Source of the DNA: a virus
Lineage: Duplodnaviria; Heunggongvirae; Uroviricota; Caudoviricetes
DNA length: 7,605 nt
IMG/VR virus record: IMGVR_UViG_2713896775_000002
Coordinates: 1-7,605 of that record
Strand: one strand, 5' to 3'
The translations under genes were made by a program, and so were the position numbers. The notes below the pieces were generated by a model. The model did not search any database. It was not told the origin of the DNA and saw only the letters and a list, made by a program, of their open reading frames with translations. This document shows, one piece after another, positions 1 through 7,605 of the stretch. Within the stretch, counting starts at the first letter, position 1. The number at the start of each line of letters is the position of its first letter.

Positions 1-49
1 CAACAGTCTGAACGTACCAGGAACAGCCTCCTTCAGGGCTTGAAGGATA

Positions 50-3000
50 TCAATGTTCGCTTCCTGTTAACTGCCCGACAAGTGCAACCAGTTCGCTTAC
101 CTGATTTTCCAGAGTGCTGATCCGGGTGCCTGCTGTTGCCAGATTTTGACGTAGCGTTGTGTTTTCCTCTTCCAGCGCGGTAACGCGATCATCTGTTTCA
201 CGGGCGACCTGAACAAGTAAACCCGTCACGGCGGAGTAGTCAACATTAAGATAGCGAGTTTCTTCGCGTAGCTCGTTGCCGTCAACGGTCGGACCTTGCA
301 ACTCTTCACCATAATGAGTAAACGATCCCACAGCTTCTGGTATCGCCTCCATTACTTCCTGTGCAATAACGCCAGCATAAGGCATCCCGTTTTCCCTGAG
401 CGTGTAGGTGTATCCGTTCATTTTACGGATTGCTTTCGTCGCGTCGCTGATAACGAGAATATCGTCTTTAAGGTCGCGGTCTGATGACTGATTCAGCGTT
501 GTGCAATTAATAGCGCCATTTACATCAAACAACTGGCCTGCTGACGTTTTTTGCGCATAAAACAGATACGCAGCAGACGTTCCAACCTCAAAAACGTTTT
601 GTCGAGTACTGGAACCCCACACCCTGACAGAAAACGGTAGTTCTGCATTACCTGAGTTCTGTAAAACAAAACGATTACCAGTCCCTGATTGCTTTGTAAG
701 GGTTAAATCAACGGTTGAGTTAACCTCATTCTTGTTGATAGTGAGCGTCTGCGCTGTAGCCCCGTTAACAGCACCTGTTTTGAGTTGAACCGCGCCGTCA
801 TTACCATTTAACAGTATCTCAGCTCCGCTAAAGAAATTTTTTAGCGACAGCATCTTACTTACGCCGACTGATGAACCCAACGCCCACACGAGAGAATTAC
901 CGGTGCTATCAAACCCACGTACAAAGCAATCCATTTTGCTATAGTCTGACGTGCTTCCAAGGACATCAATTCGCCCTCCGCCAGATTTTACCGGGTTAGA
1001 TGTGGTTAATGACCTGACAGCAAGATCGGTAGATGAATTGAGATCGTCTACTGTTAGTAATTTCTTCCATTCCTGCGTCGTTCCATTTTCAATTGTTCTT
1101 CCCCAAAAACCGGAATTGCGGCCTCCGAACTGCACAGCATAATTTTTACTAAATTGAACATGAATGCCGCCAAGAACCATAGAGCCTGCCGGGCCGTTTG
1201 TACTGCCTGCAATTGGTATAAATTTATTAATGTTATCAGTATGCTGCGTGTTCCAGTCTCGCCCTGTTTTTGTAAGCAGTCCTAATGTCGTGTCGAGCGC
1301 TTCGGTTAAAGTAAGATTTTTAAATTTAACTGCGCTACTTTCGCCAAGACTTAAGTTGTTTCGCGCATCTTCTACTGTTGTCGCACCTGTACCTCCTTGC
1401 CCAACAGCTAATGGCAACCAGCCAGTGCCATTATGACAACCCCACAAACCAGATTTGGAAACCTGTAAGCGTGGTGCGCCTGAAGAATACGTAGAATATA
1501 CGTAAGTTGTTTCTTTTCCCTCTTCAACCCTTTCTGTTGATACATCTCTCTTCCATTCAGACCAGGTACCGCTTCCTCCTTCATATATTCGTCTATAAGT
1601 AATTCCCGGATTATTATAAGGGTAGTACACCTGAACGCAGGAAGAAGCAGTGTTGGCTCTCGTTTGGAGCACTATTAAAGCGCCCGCCAGACCGATTGGG
1701 TAATTTAATTCTTCTGTTGCGTAAGCGCTCGTTGGTTGTTGATAGAAACCAGAATATTCACCGGTAAGGGTGTTTAGGTCAGTATTAGCAAGGCCAGCTT
1801 TTTGCTCATACATTACCCGCAAGTTCGCACGTGCTTGCTCGATAGTTCTTCCACCAGTACCACCCTGGGCTAAACCTAACGGAGACCATTGTCCAGAAGA
1901 AGAATCATAAACCCCCCAACTCCCGTTAGTATGGATTTCAAAGAAACGATCACCAGTTGGACCATACATACGAGTTGTTGATTCATTTTGACCAAAGCGG
2001 CTTAATTCATCTCTGCGGGTATGACGTATCCATTGCGGGCCAGAACTTTGGCAGTAAATGTACGAATACAATGATTTTGTATCTGAACCAACAAATAGAC
2101 CGGAATATCTTTTTGTTGACACTTCTGATCTAACTATATAACCAGAAATAAGATTATCCCCGGCACTAGACGCTACTGATGGATAACCTTTCGCTGAGAT
2201 GTAAATCCTGATAAATCCAATATAACCTGATGGCTCAACAGAGATATCAGTGCAGGTCATAGCAACTTCACCAAGACCAATATTGTTACCAACAACGGAT
2301 TGTGCCTGGTTGCGATAATTAAGTGCGTCCGCTGCAGATTTCGCCGCGTTTGTTTCACTGGATTTAGCATTAGTTTCGCTGCTCTTTGCTGCTGCCTCGC
2401 TATTTTTCGCATTGGTTTCTGATTTTTTGGCTGCTGTCGCGGAGTTTGCCGATGCAGTTTGTGAGGCCGCTGCCGCCTGTGCGCTGTTATCCGCATTCGT
2501 CTCAGACGTTTTTGCGGCCTTCGCGGAATTTCCTGCCGCCGTTGCCGAAGAGGCTGCACTACTGGCGCTCGAGGCTGCGCTCGTTTCTGATGATTTCGCT
2601 GCCTCTTTTGAGGCCGCCGCATCCCGGGCTGAGGTGGCAGCTTCTGACGCTTTCGTGGTCGCGGTGGATGCAGAAGTGGCTGCAGATTTTTGTGACGCTG
2701 CAGCATTCGTTTCTGACGTTTTCGCCGCACCGGCACTGGTAGCCGCCGCGCTTTTTGAGGACTCTGCAGCGGCAGCACTTTTTGATGCTTCAGTAGCCTT
2801 TGTTGATGCCGTTCCTGCGCTGGAAGACGCTGACTGAGCCGACGTCGCGGCCTGCCCGGCTGATGTGCTGGCTGCACGTGCTGAGCCTGCAGCATCAGTC
2901 GCATGGGTTGCCGCCTTACGGGCTGATGTGCCGGCATCGCTGGCTGACTTCTTCGCGGCTGCCGTGTTCTGTGCCACTGCGGACGCGTTACGCGCCACCT

Positions 3001-3334
3001 CTTCCACCATCAGTTCAAAGCGGCGCAGTGCCTCCGGACGGGCATCATCCTCCGTCATGGCACCGAGAAAATCATTCAGCGTACCCGGTTGTGAGTCTTC
3101 ATACACGGTGATGGTCCCGGCATGCGATGGCGGGAAGCCTTCCACCATCAGAATAACGCTGTACTGACCGTACTCAACGTCCATGCTGTAACGCCCGGCT
3201 TCATCCGGATTTTCTGAGGCCACCGTGTTCACCACCACCGTGGTGCTGTTACGTTTTGCTTTCAGCTGGATTGTGCAGTTCTGTACCGGTTTACCTGCAC
3301 CGTCTTTCAGTACACCTGAAATCTTTACTGCCAT
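50..3334 (-). CDS. stf: Side tail fibre protein (Stf-like): lambda-type N-terminus, Ala/Ser-rich shaft, non-lambda distal region, C-terminal intramolecular chaperone domain
   Basis: About 1094 codons ending at TGA 50-52. From the ATG at 3334 the N-terminus MAVKISGVLKDGAGKPVQNCTIQLKAKRNSTTVVVNTV...GFPPSHAGTITVYEDSQPGTLNDF matches the lambda Stf N-terminus as I recall it. The ORF track begins two codons earlier at an in-frame GTG (3340); I prefer the ATG because it matches lambda and has a G-rich stretch (GTGGGG) upstream. The C-terminus carries the intramolecular-chaperone motif (see 53..484). Confidence 0.85.
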   Translation of the reverse strand: MAVKISGVLKDGAGKPVQNCTIQLKAKRNSTTVVVNTVASENPDEAGRYSMDVEYGQYSVILMVEGFPPSHAGTITVYEDSQPGTLNDFLGAMTEDDARPEALRRFELMVEEVARNASAVAQNTAAAKKSASDAGTSARKAATHATDAAGSARAASTSAGQAATSAQSASSSAGTASTKATEASKSAAAAESSKSAAATSAGAAKTSETNAAASQKSAATSASTATTKASEAATSARDAAASKEAAKSSETSAASSASSAASSATAAGNSAKAAKTSETNADNSAQAAAASQTASANSATAAKKSETNAKNSEAAAKSSETNAKSSETNAAKSAADALNYRNQAQSVVGNNIGLGEVAMTCTDISVEPSGYIGFIRIYISAKGYPSVASSAGDNLISGYIVRSEVSTKRYSGLFVGSDTKSLYSYIYCQSSGPQWIRHTRRDELSRFGQNESTTRMYGPTGDRFFEIHTNGSWGVYDSSSGQWSPLGLAQGGTGGRTIEQARANLRVMYEQKAGLANTDLNTLTGEYSGFYQQPTSAYATEELNYPIGLAGALIVLQTRANTASSCVQVYYPYNNPGITYRRIYEGGSGTWSEWKRDVSTERVEEGKETTYVYSTYSSGAPRLQVSKSGLWGCHNGTGWLPLAVGQGGTGATTVEDARNNLSLGESSAVKFKNLTLTEALDTTLGLLTKTGRDWNTQHTDNINKFIPIAGSTNGPAGSMVLGGIHVQFSKNYAVQFGGRNSGFWGRTIENGTTQEWKKLLTVDDLNSSTDLAVRSLTTSNPVKSGGGRIDVLGSTSDYSKMDCFVRGFDSTGNSLVWALGSSVGVSKMLSLKNFFSGAEILLNGNDGAVQLKTGAVNGATAQTLTINKNEVNSTVDLTLTKQSGTGNRFVLQNSGNAELPFSVRVWGSSTRQNVFEVGTSAAYLFYAQKTSAGQLFDVNGAINCTTLNQSSDRDLKDDILVISDATKAIRKMNGYTYTLRENGMPYAGVIAQEVMEAIPEAVGSFTHYGEELQGPTVDGNELREETRYLNVDYSAVTGLLVQVARETDDRVTALEEENTTLRQNLATAGTRISTLENQVSELVALVGQLTGSEH
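53..484 (-). other. C-terminal intramolecular chaperone / self-cleaving domain of Stf (endosialidase-chaperone, peptidase S74-like)
   Basis: The last 144 residues begin SDRDLKDDILVISDATKAIRKMNGYTYTL...YAGVIAQEV and end in a predicted coiled-coil-like tail (ALEEENTTLRQNLATAGTRISTLENQVSELVALV). The S-D-R-x-L-K-x-x-I start and the overall pattern match the auto-cleaving C-terminal chaperone domains of phage K1F endosialidase and T5 L-shaped tail fibre, recalled from the literature and not searched. Confidence 0.65.
1343..1414 (-). repeat. Phage tail-fibre 'QGGTG' repeat motif, copy 2 (within stf)
   Basis: Stf residues about 643-666 read LPLAVGQGGTGATTVEDARNNLSLG, sharing the W..PL(A/G)..QGGTG.(R/T)T.E.AR.NL pattern with copy 1. 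It matches the short conserved tail-fibre repeat seen in many enterobacterial phage fibres. Confidence 0.6.
1814..1882 (-). repeat. Phage tail-fibre 'QGGTG' repeat motif, copy 1 (within stf)
   Basis: Stf residues about 487-509 read PLGLAQGGTGGRTIEQARANLRV. I verified the codons GCC CAG GGT GGT ACT GGT GGA on the minus strand at about 1850-1870. Confidence 0.6.
2320..3015 (-). repeat. Ala/Ser/Thr-rich low-complexity shaft region of Stf with degenerate tandem repeats
   Basis: Stf residues about 110-340 are dominated by A, S, T, K and E, with recurring (A)K(T/S)SETNA units at residues 206-213, 276-283, 305-311, 319-325 and 326-332. The DNA shows matching imperfect repeats (for example GCATTCGTTTCTGACGTTTTCGCC near 2703 and GCATTCGTCTCAGACGTTTTTGC near 2494). 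The compositional bias produces the spurious overlapping ORFs in other frames here. Confidence 0.75.
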
Positions 3335-3344
3335 ATTCACCCCA

Positions 3345-3372
3345 CAAAAAAGCCCGCCTGAACCGGCGGGCT
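3345..3372 (-). terminator. Rho-independent terminator downstream of lom, immediately upstream of stf
   Basis: 8-bp stem AGCCCGCC/GGCGGGCT (3351-3358 with 3365-3372, 6-nt loop), followed on the minus strand by TTTTTT (complement of the A-run at 3345-3350). The stf start lies about 12 nt further downstream. Confidence 0.7.
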
Positions 3373-3398
3373 GTCATAACACTGTGTTACCTGGCTAA

Positions 3399-3998
3399 TC
3401 AGAATTTATAACCGACACCCACGATGAAACCGTCAGTGCGCCAGTCACCACTGCCGGAGCCTTCATAAGCAATATCAATGGCCACGGATTCGGTCGGGTT
3501 AAACTGCACGCCAGCCCCCCACGCCAGAGACGTGTTGCTGCGGCGACCGTCATCACTTCCGGTCAGCACTTCGTGCGTTTTCCCCTTGTTGTCAGTTACG
3601 CGGAGATAATCCCCGGAGAAAGTCGAAACACGGCTGTAAGCCACACCCGCCATCGCATACGCGCTAAACCATTCATTCACGCGCACAGACGGCCCCGCCA
3701 TCACGCTGAACCAGCGGTTACGCACGGAATCTTCATGCCAGCGGGTATCGCTGTAATGAGTCAGCTGGCGATTCTTGTCTTCTGCATAGCTGAATGACGT
3801 CACCATCCCCAGCGTGTCCGTAAACTCATAGCGGTATTTCACGTTAATCCCGTTAAGATCATCGCTGCCGGGAACGTTCGTCGAGGCATGAAGATACCCC
3901 GCGCTCAGCGTGGACTGATGTTCAGACGCCCATGCAGGCGCACCGGATACGACCAGACAGATGGCTGCGGACAAAATGGCTGCACAAACTTTACGCAT
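3399..3998 (-). CDS. lom: Lom outer-membrane protein (Ail/Lom/PagC family beta-barrel), 199 aa
   Basis: N-terminal signal peptide MRKVCAAILSAAICLVVSGAPAWA with an AWA|S cleavage site. C-terminus ...DWRTDGFIVGVGYKF ends in Phe, as is typical of outer-membrane beta-barrels. The sequence closely matches lambda Lom as I recall it. RBS GAGAGG lies 6 nt upstream of ATG at 3998. Position between J and stf matches lambda. Confidence 0.93.
   Translation of the reverse strand: MRKVCAAILSAAICLVVSGAPAWASEHQSTLSAGYLHASTNVPGSDDLNGINVKYRYEFTDTLGMVTSFSYAEDKNRQLTHYSDTRWHEDSVRNRWFSVMAGPSVRVNEWFSAYAMAGVAYSRVSTFSGDYLRVTDNKGKTHEVLTGSDDGRRSNTSLAWGAGVQFNPTESVAIDIAYEGSGSGDWRTDGFIVGVGYKF
3927..3998 (-). other. Sec signal peptide of Lom (about 24 aa)
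   Basis: A basic N-terminus (MRK), a hydrophobic core (VCAAILSAAICLVV) and an A-x-A-like cleavage motif (AWA-SE). Confidence 0.7.
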
Positions 3999-4019
3999 AA
4001 TTACCTCTCGCTTTTCTGC

Positions 4020-4046
4020 AATAAAAAAGGCGTCATTCCTGACGCC
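4020..4046 (-). terminator. Rho-independent terminator downstream of J
   Basis: Perfect 7-bp GC-rich stem GGCGTCA/TGACGCC (4029-4035 with 4040-4046, loop TTCC). On the minus strand it is followed directly by TTTTTTAT. The plus strand also has a short T-rich tract (CTTTATT) after the stem, so it may act in both directions. Confidence 0.7.
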
Positions 4047-4068
4047 CTTTATTGGGGTTATAACAATT

Positions 4069-7000
4069 TCAACGAATACTGATGCCGGAAGCAGCCTTTT
4101 TGGTCACAATCACCGTACAGTCGGTGATATTGCCTGCCCCCTGATTGCCTTTCTGGAAAATCTTAAACTCCAGAGTGACGCTTCCCCTGCCACTCGGCAT
4201 ATCAATAACCGCACTGTAACTACCGGGAATGGCCCCTTTAGTTTCTCTGGATGCGATTAATACGCCGTTTTTGCGAACTTCAAAACCATACCCCGTGTAC
4301 CTTGTACCTCCCGGGTTATCACCACTTCCCGGATCATCATACGCTATACCGTTAAAGATAATGGGCGGAATAATGATTTGACGGTCAAAGTTATGATCAT
4401 CGCTGATGGTGACTGTAACCGTCCCGTCTGGTGTTTCCGTGTTACCCCACGTACCAGCCTTTTTCGGGAATGATTTGGATACTGTTTTAACAAAATCACC
4501 TCTGACCTGATTCGCCTCCAGCATGCCCTTAATCGTACAGTTTTCATTTATCGTGACGTTGTTGAGCGTCCCGGAGTTCGCATTCACACTGCCACTAATA
4601 TCCGCATTTTTAGCGGCCAGCTTTCCGTCCGGTGTCAGGGAAAATACCGGTGGATTTCCACCACTGGTAATGGTGGAGGCCGTCAGGCGTTTCAGGAACA
4701 CGTCGTTCATGAATATCTGGTTGCCCTGCGCCACAAACATCGGCGTTTCATTCCCGTTTGCCGGGTCAATAAACGCGATACGGTTAGCAGCAACCAGAAA
4801 CTGGCTCAGTTTGCCTTCCTCTGTATCCTCCATGCTGAGGCCAAGCCCCGCGACATAATGCTTACCGTCTTCGGTCTGCTCAATTTTGACGCCCCACATG
4901 GCATTCCATTTATCGTTGGCGTCTTTCCACTCTTTCGAAAACTCCTCCAGTCTGCTGGCGTTATCCTCCGTCAGGTCGACTTTTTCCAGCAGCTCCTTGC
5001 CGAGATGGGATTCGGTTATCTGGCCTTTGAAAAAATCCAGGTAACCTTCCGCATCATCGCTCGCCCGACCGACGGCCTCCACAAATGCCGATTTGCCTAC
5101 GGTGTTCACACTGCGGATATAAAAGTAATAATCATGGCCCGGTTTGATATTGATACTGGCGGCTATCCAGTACAGCGCCGTACCAAGATAGCGGGCTGTG
5201 GTTTCAACCTGCCTGATATCCGCAATCCGCTTTTCCGAGAACCAGAACTCAAACTGTACCGTCGGATCATAAACCGCAAGATGCGGCGTGGCGGTTATCT
5301 GAAAATAGCCCGGCGTCAGCTCAATCCGCGACGGCGCTGCCGGTGCGGCGATCCGGAACGATACCGATGCCGGATCGCCCTGCTGTCCCCATGCATTTAC
5401 CGCCCGGACTGTCAGCCTGTAATTTCCCAGCGCCAGCTGCCTGAAGCGATATGTGGTTTCCGTCGTCCGGGCCGTGCTGACCAGCCGCTCACTGCCGTCG
5501 TCCGCTGCCACGGTCAGGCGAAGCATAAAGCTCACACCCTTCACCACCTTCGGCGTGTCCCAGCGGGCCAGTACCTGATACTCCCCGCTGTCTGCGGTGA
5601 CTTCGGCAGTCAGGTGCTGCACCGCTGGCGGCGTGACACCATTCACCGTGCCGCTCTGGTCGCTGTCAAAGTGCGCCCCGTTATCCACGATGGCCTCTTT
5701 TTCAGGTACATGCTGCACGGCGGTGATGGCATACGTGCCGTCGTCGTTCTCACGGATACTCACGCAGCGGAACAGGCGCTGGCGCAGCGTCGGCAGCTTC
5801 AGCCCCCACACGCTGTATCCGGCAACGCCGTCAGGAACCCGGCTCACTTTTACCTTCACGCCGTCGGTGACGGACTGAACCTCCACGCTGACCGGATTGC
5901 CATTTCCGTCAACCAGGCTTATCAGCGTGGTGCCGGAGGATGGCAGCGTGATTTCACGGTCGAGCGTCAGCGTCCGGGTCTGGCTGTTCACCGCCAGCAC
6001 GCGCCCGCCGGTGCTGATACCGGCATAGTCATCATCGCAGATTTCAATGACATCGCCCGGTACATGGCGAAGCCCTTCAGCACCCACGCTGAAGTCCACG
6101 GTCTGCGTTTCCAGCAGCTCCGTTTTAATCAGCCACAGCCCGGCGCGGTGTGCCTGCCCCCGGCTGGTACAGCCAAAGGCATCCATCTTCGTGACATTAC
6201 GACCGTAACGGGCAATGGCCTGCGTATCTTCAACAAGCTCTGTCGCCGTCTCCCAGCCGTTGTTCGGGTCAATCCAGTTCACCTCAACGGCATTATGGCG
6301 GTCCTTCAGGGCGCTGAAGCTGTAGCGGAACGGCGCGCCATCATCCGGCATCACCACATTACTGCGGTTATAGGTCCATACCTTATCTGATGGTCGGTCC
6401 TGCACGAACGTCAGCGTCTGCCCGTTCCATACCGGCATACAGCGCATCGCCGAGCAGAAATCACTGAGAACATCCCACGCCTTACGCTGTGTGGTCAGCC
6501 AGGCATTACAGGTGATGCGCGGCTCCGTGCCGCCAAAACCATTCGGTACCAACTGGTCGCAGTACTGGCCGATAACGTACAGCGTCCATTTGTCCACATC
6601 TGCCGCACCAAGACGTTTCCCCATGCCGTAGCGCGGATGGGTCAGCATATCCCACAGACACCAGGCCATGTTGTTGCTGTATGCCGGTTTTAACGTTCCG
6701 TCCCAGATACCACTGTATTGCCGCGTCTGCGGGTTATAGTTCGACGGCACCTGCAGAATGCGCCCGCGAAGATGATAATTACGGCTCACCTGCTGGCTGC
6801 CGAACTGCTCCGAATCCACCTGTACGCCGACCAGTGCCGTGTTCGGGTAGCACTGTTTCACATCGATGATTTCGGTGTATGACGACCAGAGCGTTTTGTT
6901 CTGCAGCTGGTCTGTGGTGCTGTCCGGCGTCATCCTGCGCATCCGGATATTGAACGGGCGCGGCGGCAGGTTACCCACCACCACCGATGCCAGATACTGT

Positions 7001-7482
7001 GAGGTGGCTTTGCCTTTAATGGTGATGTCTTTTTCCGTCACCCAGCCACCGTTACGTTGTATCTGAACCAGCAGGCGGACTTCCGACGGATTCCGGTCCC
7101 CCTTTGAGGTGGTTTCCACCAGTGCCTGCACACCGAAGGTAAAGCGCAGTCGGTCGATGTTTGCCGACGTGATGGTGCGGGTGATCGGCGTGTCGTATTT
7201 CACTTCCGTACCCAGCACCGTCTCGGAGCCGGAGGATTCAAATCCCTCCGGCGGAGTCTGCTCCTGCTCACCGGCCCGGAACACCACCGTGACACCGGCG
7301 ATGTTGGTATTCCCCTCACTGTCCAGCACCGGCGTACTGTTCAGCAGCACGCTTTTTAATCCATCCACCGGACCTTCAATCGGCCCTTCACTGATGGCAT
7401 CAATCACACTCAGCAACTGCGTGGATTTCAGGTTGTCCTTCGCTTCGCGCGGGGTATGCCCCTTACTGCTGCCTTTACCCAT
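4069..7482 (-). CDS. J: Host specificity protein J (central tail fibre / tail tip protein), 1137 aa
   Basis: Uninterrupted 1137-aa ORF. The N-terminus [41 protein letters not shown] and most of the length match lambda J as I recall it, including fibronectin-III-like central segments. ATG at 7482 is preceded by GGAG with an 8-nt spacer. Size and position before lom match lambda. Confidence 0.95.
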
Positions 7483-7492
7483 TCGTCACGCT

Positions 7493-7524
7493 CCATAAAC
7501 GACAAAACCGCCCGCAGGCGGTTT
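7493..7524 (-). terminator. Hairpin plus T-rich tract between the I-like gene and J; possible weak intrinsic terminator or attenuator
   Basis: Inverted repeat AAACCGCC/GGCGGTTT (7505-7512 with 7517-7524, 4-nt loop). On the minus strand it is followed by TGTCGTTTAT, a moderately U-rich tract, and lies just upstream of the J ribosome-binding site. Confidence 0.4.
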
Positions 7525-7542
7525 CACATAAAATGTTTTGCA

Positions 7543-7605
7543 TCAGCGACCAATCACCACAACCTGACCACCATCCCCTTCGTCTGCCGTGCTGATCTCC
7601 TGAGA
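7543..7605 (-). CDS. 3' end of upstream tail gene, probably a lambda I-like tail tip assembly protein (partial; start lies beyond the window end)
   Basis: Open minus-strand frame from the window edge to TGA at 7543-7545, reading ...SQEISTADEGDGGQVVVIGR*. It lies immediately 5' of J, where gene I sits in lambda. Only 20 codons are visible, so the call rests on synteny. Confidence 0.4.
   Translation of the reverse strand, partial: SQEISTADEGDGGQVVVIGR

Follow-up and report, generated by a model that had tools for sequence, protein, structure and literature searches.

Receptor-binding domains of the gpJ family

In the textbook picture, the C-terminal ~150 residues of the J protein are a cassette that lambdoid phages swap at a conserved linker. 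The receptor of phage 434 is OmpC, and lambda acquires OmpC binding when it carries the tail-fibre gene of 434 (PMC3509688, PMC11101478). The primary report (Hantke, 1978) names 434 and protein Ib in its title. When natural variants were substituted for just the portion of lambda gpJ beyond residue 964, the particles were retargeted to OmpC instead of LamB (PMC11338833; Brödel et al. 2024), which demonstrates that in these relatives the C-terminal gpJ cassette alone suffices for the receptor swap. The opening of the tail tip upon binding was described from lambda-LamB structures (PMC11101478). An A8-OmpC complex has likewise been deposited in the PDB (9WCB).

The receptor-binding domains (RBDs) of the gpJ family fall into discrete classes. 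One contains the RBDs of phage 434, mEp460 and the locus described below, the second contains those of phage 21, BP-4795 and A8 (78-90% mutual identity), and lambda represents a third. The phage 21 RBD is 45% identical to the lambda RBD, and both use LamB, whereas the A8 RBD is 82% identical to that of phage 21, yet binds OmpC. Phage 21 natively uses LamB, and the substitution I1025T lets it reach OmpC; the I1025/V1026 numbering of the phage 21 paper fits the 1160-aa phage 21 J compared here. Since phage 21 is that far from lambda and still uses LamB, divergence alone predicts no receptor switch. It is the class of an RBD, not its divergence from lambda, that informs on the receptor.

Gene layout of the window and the mosaic structure of J

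The window, that is, the whole analysed stretch of 7,605 nucleotides (positions 1 to 7,605 of the IMG/VR record IMGVR_UViG_2713896775_000002), comes from a lambda-like E. coli prophage and contains its tail-end genes, I'-J-lom-stf. According to the list of open reading frames, every substantial gene is on the minus strand. These are the 3' end of a tail assembly gene (above 7482), J, encoding the tip attachment protein or central tail fibre (4069..7482; an ORF of 1137 aa plus the stop codon), lom, encoding an Ail/Lom outer-membrane protein (3399..3998; 199 aa, Pfam Ail_Lom 411.8 bits), and the side-tail-fibre gene stf (3340..50; 1096 aa). The ORFs agree with the tail cluster order (…K, I, J, lom, stf) in the annotation of E. 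coli RMDEC332, 434 and mEp460. RMDEC332 is the nearest complete genome, with 98.5% identity across all 7605 bases, and there the block ends a full lambda-like tail operon, adjoining bioA/ybhB. An intrinsic terminator-like hairpin with a T run is observed between J and lom on the minus strand (4023..4046; GGGCGTCAGGAATGACGCC followed by TTTTTTAT), and a terminator is annotated at the equivalent J/lom position in the records of 434 and mEp460. No Rfam families or tandem repeats were detected when the window was scanned for them.

The J ORF is intact and contains the full domain architecture of gpJ, from the hub domains to the C-terminal Ig-like RBD, with all Pfam domains above the cutoff (Phage-tail_3, FNIII-A_GpJ, Ig_J, Ig_J_second, Phage_Tail_Tip, Ig_GpJ_C). 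Its closest phage record is mEp460 (JQ182728, AFM76055), with 98.3% identity over the whole J, followed by 434 (96.8%) and lambda (88%). The identity to lambda J (NC_001416) is distributed very unevenly. Residues 1-985 (4528..7482, minus strand), which comprise the hub, FNIII, Ig, helical shaft and straight-fibre parts, are identical at 951 of 985 positions in the global alignment (96.5%, with 92.9-98% in individual sub-blocks). Residues 986-1137 (4072..4527, minus strand) are identical at 55 of 152 positions (36%). A two-rate maximum-likelihood scan locates the change point just after residue 984 (p = 1e-70 in Fisher's exact test).

This is almost exactly where the original prediction had placed it, in claiming that J is nearly identical to that of lambda up to about residue 985 and diverges substantially over the final ~150 residues. 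The region it had singled out, 4072-4530, corresponds to residues 985-1137 of the 7482..4069 ORF, and all the peptides that it quoted are present. The identity of the terminal region to lambda is well under the 90% at which this region would have counted as lambda-like. The same region was also said to be more AT-rich than the rest of J, and this is indeed the case. The GC content of codons 986-1137 is 0.480, with GC3 of 0.480, compared to 0.574 and 0.694, respectively, in codons 1-985. Elsewhere in J no 456-nt segment has so low a GC content (the minimum being 0.515), and that of lambda's own receptor-binding segment is also higher (0.558).

On the DNA level, positions 4513-7605 of the window are 94.8% identical to lambda. 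The BLASTN homology ends at position 4513 and restarts at approximately 3500, within the 3' portion of lom. The block with no DNA homology to lambda is thus ~1 kb long and spans the RBD and most of lom. Directly upstream of the breakpoint lies a conserved linker (residues 958-985; 4528..4611, minus strand) that is common to the window, 434, lambda, phage 21 and A8 and is likely to be the site of recombination between RBD classes. J of the window is therefore a mosaic, in which a lambda-type body and a 434-class tip are joined at the conserved linker. The swap is the classical h434 host-range cassette. It has been known from the 1970s onwards, its relatives are understood at the structural level, and it agrees with the cassette exchange described above.

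The 5' four-fifths of lom lie within the block that is not homologous to lambda. The encoded protein is 99.5% identical to Lom of mEp460, 94.5% to that of 434 and 46% to lambda Lom. The RBD and lom were considered as one co-inherited unit, and this was rejected: the lom type of the window occurs in 165 phage records, including those with other RBD classes (e.g., LC645428, LC727854), as against 74 records for the 434-class RBD. The lambda lom is the rarer type. The side tail fibre of the window diverges from Stf of 434 after ~250 aa. Compared to mEp460, the central part of Stf differs, and the homology is broken between positions 1267 and 2211 of the window.

The 434 class of receptor-binding domains

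The divergent segment is a true homologue of the lambda RBD. Firstly, residues 1001-1136 match the Pfam family PF12421 (Ig_GpJ_C, tip attachment protein J, C-terminal receptor binding domain) with 87.7 bits at a cutoff of 26.2. Secondly, when the last 152 aa alone were compared to PDB sequences, the best match was the A8 gpJ chimera (9WCA, E 2e-27; Brödel et al. 2024), a member of the same family that docks on OmpC (9WCB) but belongs to another class, and lambda gpJ was also found (8XCJ, 8IYK; E ~3e-18). Finally, the AlphaFold2 monomer model of the RBD is all-beta, and, although its confidence is low (mean pLDDT 56, as only a shallow 434-class alignment was used), its four top Foldseek matches are 8xck, 9wca, 9wcb and 8xcj (E ~1e-9, TM ~0.6). 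All of these are central-fibre structures of lambda and A8, 9wcb being the A8 fibre complexed with OmpC.

In the multiple alignment, the strands GD.VK, GT.TV, DD..FDRQ, NG, DMP.G.G and KK...GIS are conserved across the classes, and class-specific indels are located between them. The original prediction had noted that short islands are retained despite the divergence, and GT.TVT..DD..FDRQI, DMP.G.G and KK...GIS do survive in all classes. In the 434 class the first, second and third variable stretches are longer and the last one is shorter: relative to the lambda RBD, there are insertions of 2, 6 and 1 residues, and the last loop is 4 residues shorter. The pLDDT of the model is too low for confident placement of loops, so that all loop-level statements here are tentative.

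The lambda gpJ RBD (8XCJ/8XCK, LamB-bound) is a homologous Ig-like domain at the same C-terminal position. However, its identity to the window RBD is only 35-36% (lambda residues 986-1132), with four indels, and the GC content of the window segment is lower; thus the window RBD is not of the lambda class. The RBDs of phage 21 and BP-4795 belong to the same family and have the same upstream linker motif, at 41% and 44% identity, respectively, and the A8 RBD is 42% identical. In contrast, the comparison with 434 that the original prediction had called for revealed 143 identical residues of 152 (94.1%) in an ungapped alignment (OL657226, UMO75286), and that with mEp460 150 of 152 (98.7%). The J protein of 434 has the same length of 1137 aa, and the order J-terminator-lom is the same. 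What sets the window apart from 434 is the downstream divergence of Stf and nine substitutions in the RBD: N991T, T1000A, S1004A, A1009V, D1055N, R1099G, I1108V, Q1110H and G1115R. Positions D1055, R1099 and G1115 among them are in predicted loops.

The window RBD thus belongs to the host-range class of phage 434 (h434). The whole J gene aligns as one piece with those of mEp460, Perceval, 434, lambda h434 imm21 and others at 95-97%; for 434 and lambda h434 imm21, it is a single alignment with 95% identity. For the last 462 bases of J, there are 74 matching phage records, at 90-99%. Searching the phage collection at the translated level likewise yielded 74 records that are 90-99% identical to the RBD, and none of the remaining records exceeded 45%. 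Entries P0022, P0025, P0034, P0047, P0050, P0055 and P0059 were considered as possible new classes and rejected, as they are fragmentary, chimeric or frameshifted. The engineered OmpC-binding chimeras A8 and 1A2, that is, the variants of Brödel et al., were considered as candidate members of the 434 class and also rejected, given the low identity of A8 and the phage 21/A8-type sequence of 1A2 in the supplement.

The 434-class RBD is very common among E. coli prophages. Of 5426 complete E. coli genomes, 2083 (38%) contain the segment, with up to 7 copies per genome, and the exact DNA allele of the window recurs in other E. coli genomes. In a scan with one genome per species the segment was found only in Escherichia, with the exception of one 1350-bp contig of a 'Collinsella' metagenome-assembled genome, which is probably mis-binned. 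Database names extend its range to Shigella and E. albertii.

HK97, N15 and phi80 had also been proposed for comparison. Their J proteins are homologous to that of the window only in the N-terminal ~720-860 residues, with additional short weak segments in HK97 and phi80 that end before residue 1000, and they have no homologous C-terminal domain. BLASTP of the window RBD gave no match in J of N15, phi80 or HK97. The gene 3' of the window J is lom and not cor, and thus the locus is not of the FhuA-dependent lambdoid type (the phi80/N15 type with cor).

Receptor assignment and allele variation

The best-supported receptor of the window J is OmpC, because its RBD is 94% identical to that of 434. 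Judging from this sequence relationship, J very probably binds OmpC rather than LamB. The original prediction had derived a receptor other than LamB from the divergence of the C-terminal region from lambda. The conclusion is supported, through the identity to 434, but the reasoning from divergence is insufficient by itself, as the example of phage 21 demonstrates; the conclusion holds only because the segment belongs to the experimentally characterised 434 class. The same example, two RBDs that are just 45% identical and both use LamB, would be the precedent for a domain that still binds LamB despite its divergence. However, the close relative of the window RBD is that of 434, a phage documented to use OmpC and not LamB, and the identity of the window RBD to the LamB-using classes, at 35% and 41%, is no higher than that to A8 (42%), which uses OmpC. 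We consider continued binding to LamB extremely improbable.

Another possibility is that the OmpC dependence of 434 is caused by its side tail fibres and not by J, in which case the true receptor of the 434-class J would be another question. The sequenced lambda h434 imm21 hybrid has J, lom, stf and tfa of 434 together, and, since it carries the last three as well, this hybrid alone fails to isolate the effect of J. Moreover, Ur-lambda has side fibres that themselves bind OmpC (PMC12617516). On the other hand, in lambda the side fibres merely speed up adsorption and are dispensable for plaques (PMC12617516), whereas 434 needs OmpC for infection, as indicated by the title of Hantke (1978). Reviews credit the switch to OmpC to the substitution in J, and structure 9wcb features direct docking of a gpJ-family RBD on OmpC. 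Finally, the window itself combines the RBD of 434 with a Stf that is different beyond approximately residue 250. A decisive role of the side fibres seems very unlikely.

With J as the determinant, the proposed mechanism is as follows. By homology with lambda, three copies of the Ig-like RBD would sit at the far end of the central fibre, and four distal loops of each RBD would enter the extracellular mouth of a trimeric porin, which for the 434 class would be OmpC and not LamB. Binding would splay the three RBDs apart, the straight fibre would twist in response, and the tail tip would open, leading to DNA ejection. For the window allele, we infer both this opening mechanism and the use of OmpC by analogy. 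Taken as a whole, a mosaic J with a lambda-type body and a 434-class RBD that targets OmpC, its loops opening the tail tip on binding, is in our opinion highly likely. This names the likely receptor of the prophage, and has little import beyond correct annotation.

The identity to 434 leaves some room for a drift in specificity, so that the domain might be restricted to particular OmpC variants, or might bind a different porin, e.g. OmpF, and not the K-12 OmpC that serves phage 434. Nine substitutions relative to 434 could contribute to such a drift. Variation within the 434 class recurs at few positions (1049-1050, 1055, 1099, 1101, 1110 and 1115), and in the low-confidence model these recurrently variable sites lie in predicted loops, in the stretches that contain indels between classes. 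Two OmpC-directed gpJ chimeras differ in their usage of 23 OmpC variants (PMC11338833), and in phage 21 one mutation (I1025T) is enough to shift receptor use. However, the RBD is 94% identical to that of 434 with no indels, and its exact DNA allele was found again in other E. coli genomes. Of the codons that differ from 434, most have synonymous changes: 24 as against 9 non-synonymous ones in the RBD, compared to 89 and 27 in the rest of J. As the two ratios are similar, there is no sign of positive selection. Thus a drift away from OmpC of K-12 is unlikely, and the 434-type use of OmpC remains the preferred reading.

A literature search on mEp460 found no receptor determination among the titles and abstracts covered, a search on ECOR13 found no receptor data, and one on the PhiR phages gave only papers on other subjects. 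One could speculate that the mEp460-like sub-allele is tuned to a different subset of the highly polymorphic OmpC alleles of E. coli, or to another porin, although we regard this as unlikely. If true, it would mean that the variable loop positions of the 434 class record a fine-scale arms race between phages and porins, and that the low GC3 of the module (0.48 vs 0.69) marks it as an import from a phage lineage with lower GC content.

Receptor-binding domain of J

All classes of J receptor-binding domain share the motif GD[I/F]VK at the domain start. In the window it takes the form GDFVK (J residues 995-999, window 4486-4500, minus strand, as J itself). In phage 21, use of OmpC was opened by the substitution I1025T inside this motif; the 434 class, whose predicted receptor is OmpC, has phenylalanine where phage 21 has I1025.

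The codon composition changes within J. GC3 is 0.48 in the receptor-binding segment (window 4072-4527) and 0.69 in the remaining part of the gene. The corresponding segment of lambda's own J has a GC content of 0.558. This contrast suggests that the 434-class cassette was derived from a lower-GC lineage. An open frame of 510 aa lies antisense to J (window 4858-6390, plus strand). The simplest explanation for this frame is that it arises incidentally from J's high GC3 on the other strand.

Misleading database matches

A receptor-binding domain 96% identical to that of the window is encoded on the 1350 bp contig JAGZNZ010000056.1, binned to a metagenome-assembled genome of 'Collinsella sp.'. Almost certainly this contig is prophage DNA from Escherichia that was binned wrongly. 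Several database proteins carrying the domain (P0022, P0025, P0047, P0050, P0055, P0059) are chimeric or frameshifted fragments; in one chimeric entry, the C-terminus of J is joined to the N-terminus of the side fibre. Such entries are probably products of faulty assembly where lambdoid prophages are repeated, and could misdirect automated homology searches.

Genes following J

The lom gene (window 3399-3998, minus strand) encodes a protein with 99.5% identity to Lom of mEp460, 94.5% to Lom of 434, and only 46% to Lom of lambda. This is the commoner of the lom types among phages, being observed in 165 phage records. It co-occurs with several classes of J receptor-binding domain, so there is no linkage between this lom type and the 434-class domain.

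The side-tail-fibre ORF (window 50-3340, minus strand; 1096 aa) combines an N-terminal domain of the prophage tail fibre type with a Peptidase_S74 domain, an intramolecular chaperone, towards its C-terminus (aa 953-1004, window 329-484, minus strand). A long Ala/Ser-rich stretch on the same strand, at about window 2350-3040, has GC up to 0.62 and AT skew of -0.48. This ORF, too, is mosaic. Homology to lambda stf reaches down to window 2493, and that to 434 down to window 2913; homology to mEp460 extends down to window 2211 and is observed again across window 1-1267.

Chromosomal setting

In the closest complete genome, E. coli RMDEC332 (NZ_CM177021 1591749-1611353), the genes ybhB, bioA and bioB lie a few kb from the tail end of the prophage, which is the classical neighbourhood of the lambda attachment site. 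Remnants of tail fibre assembly genes are found between these genes and the prophage tail end.
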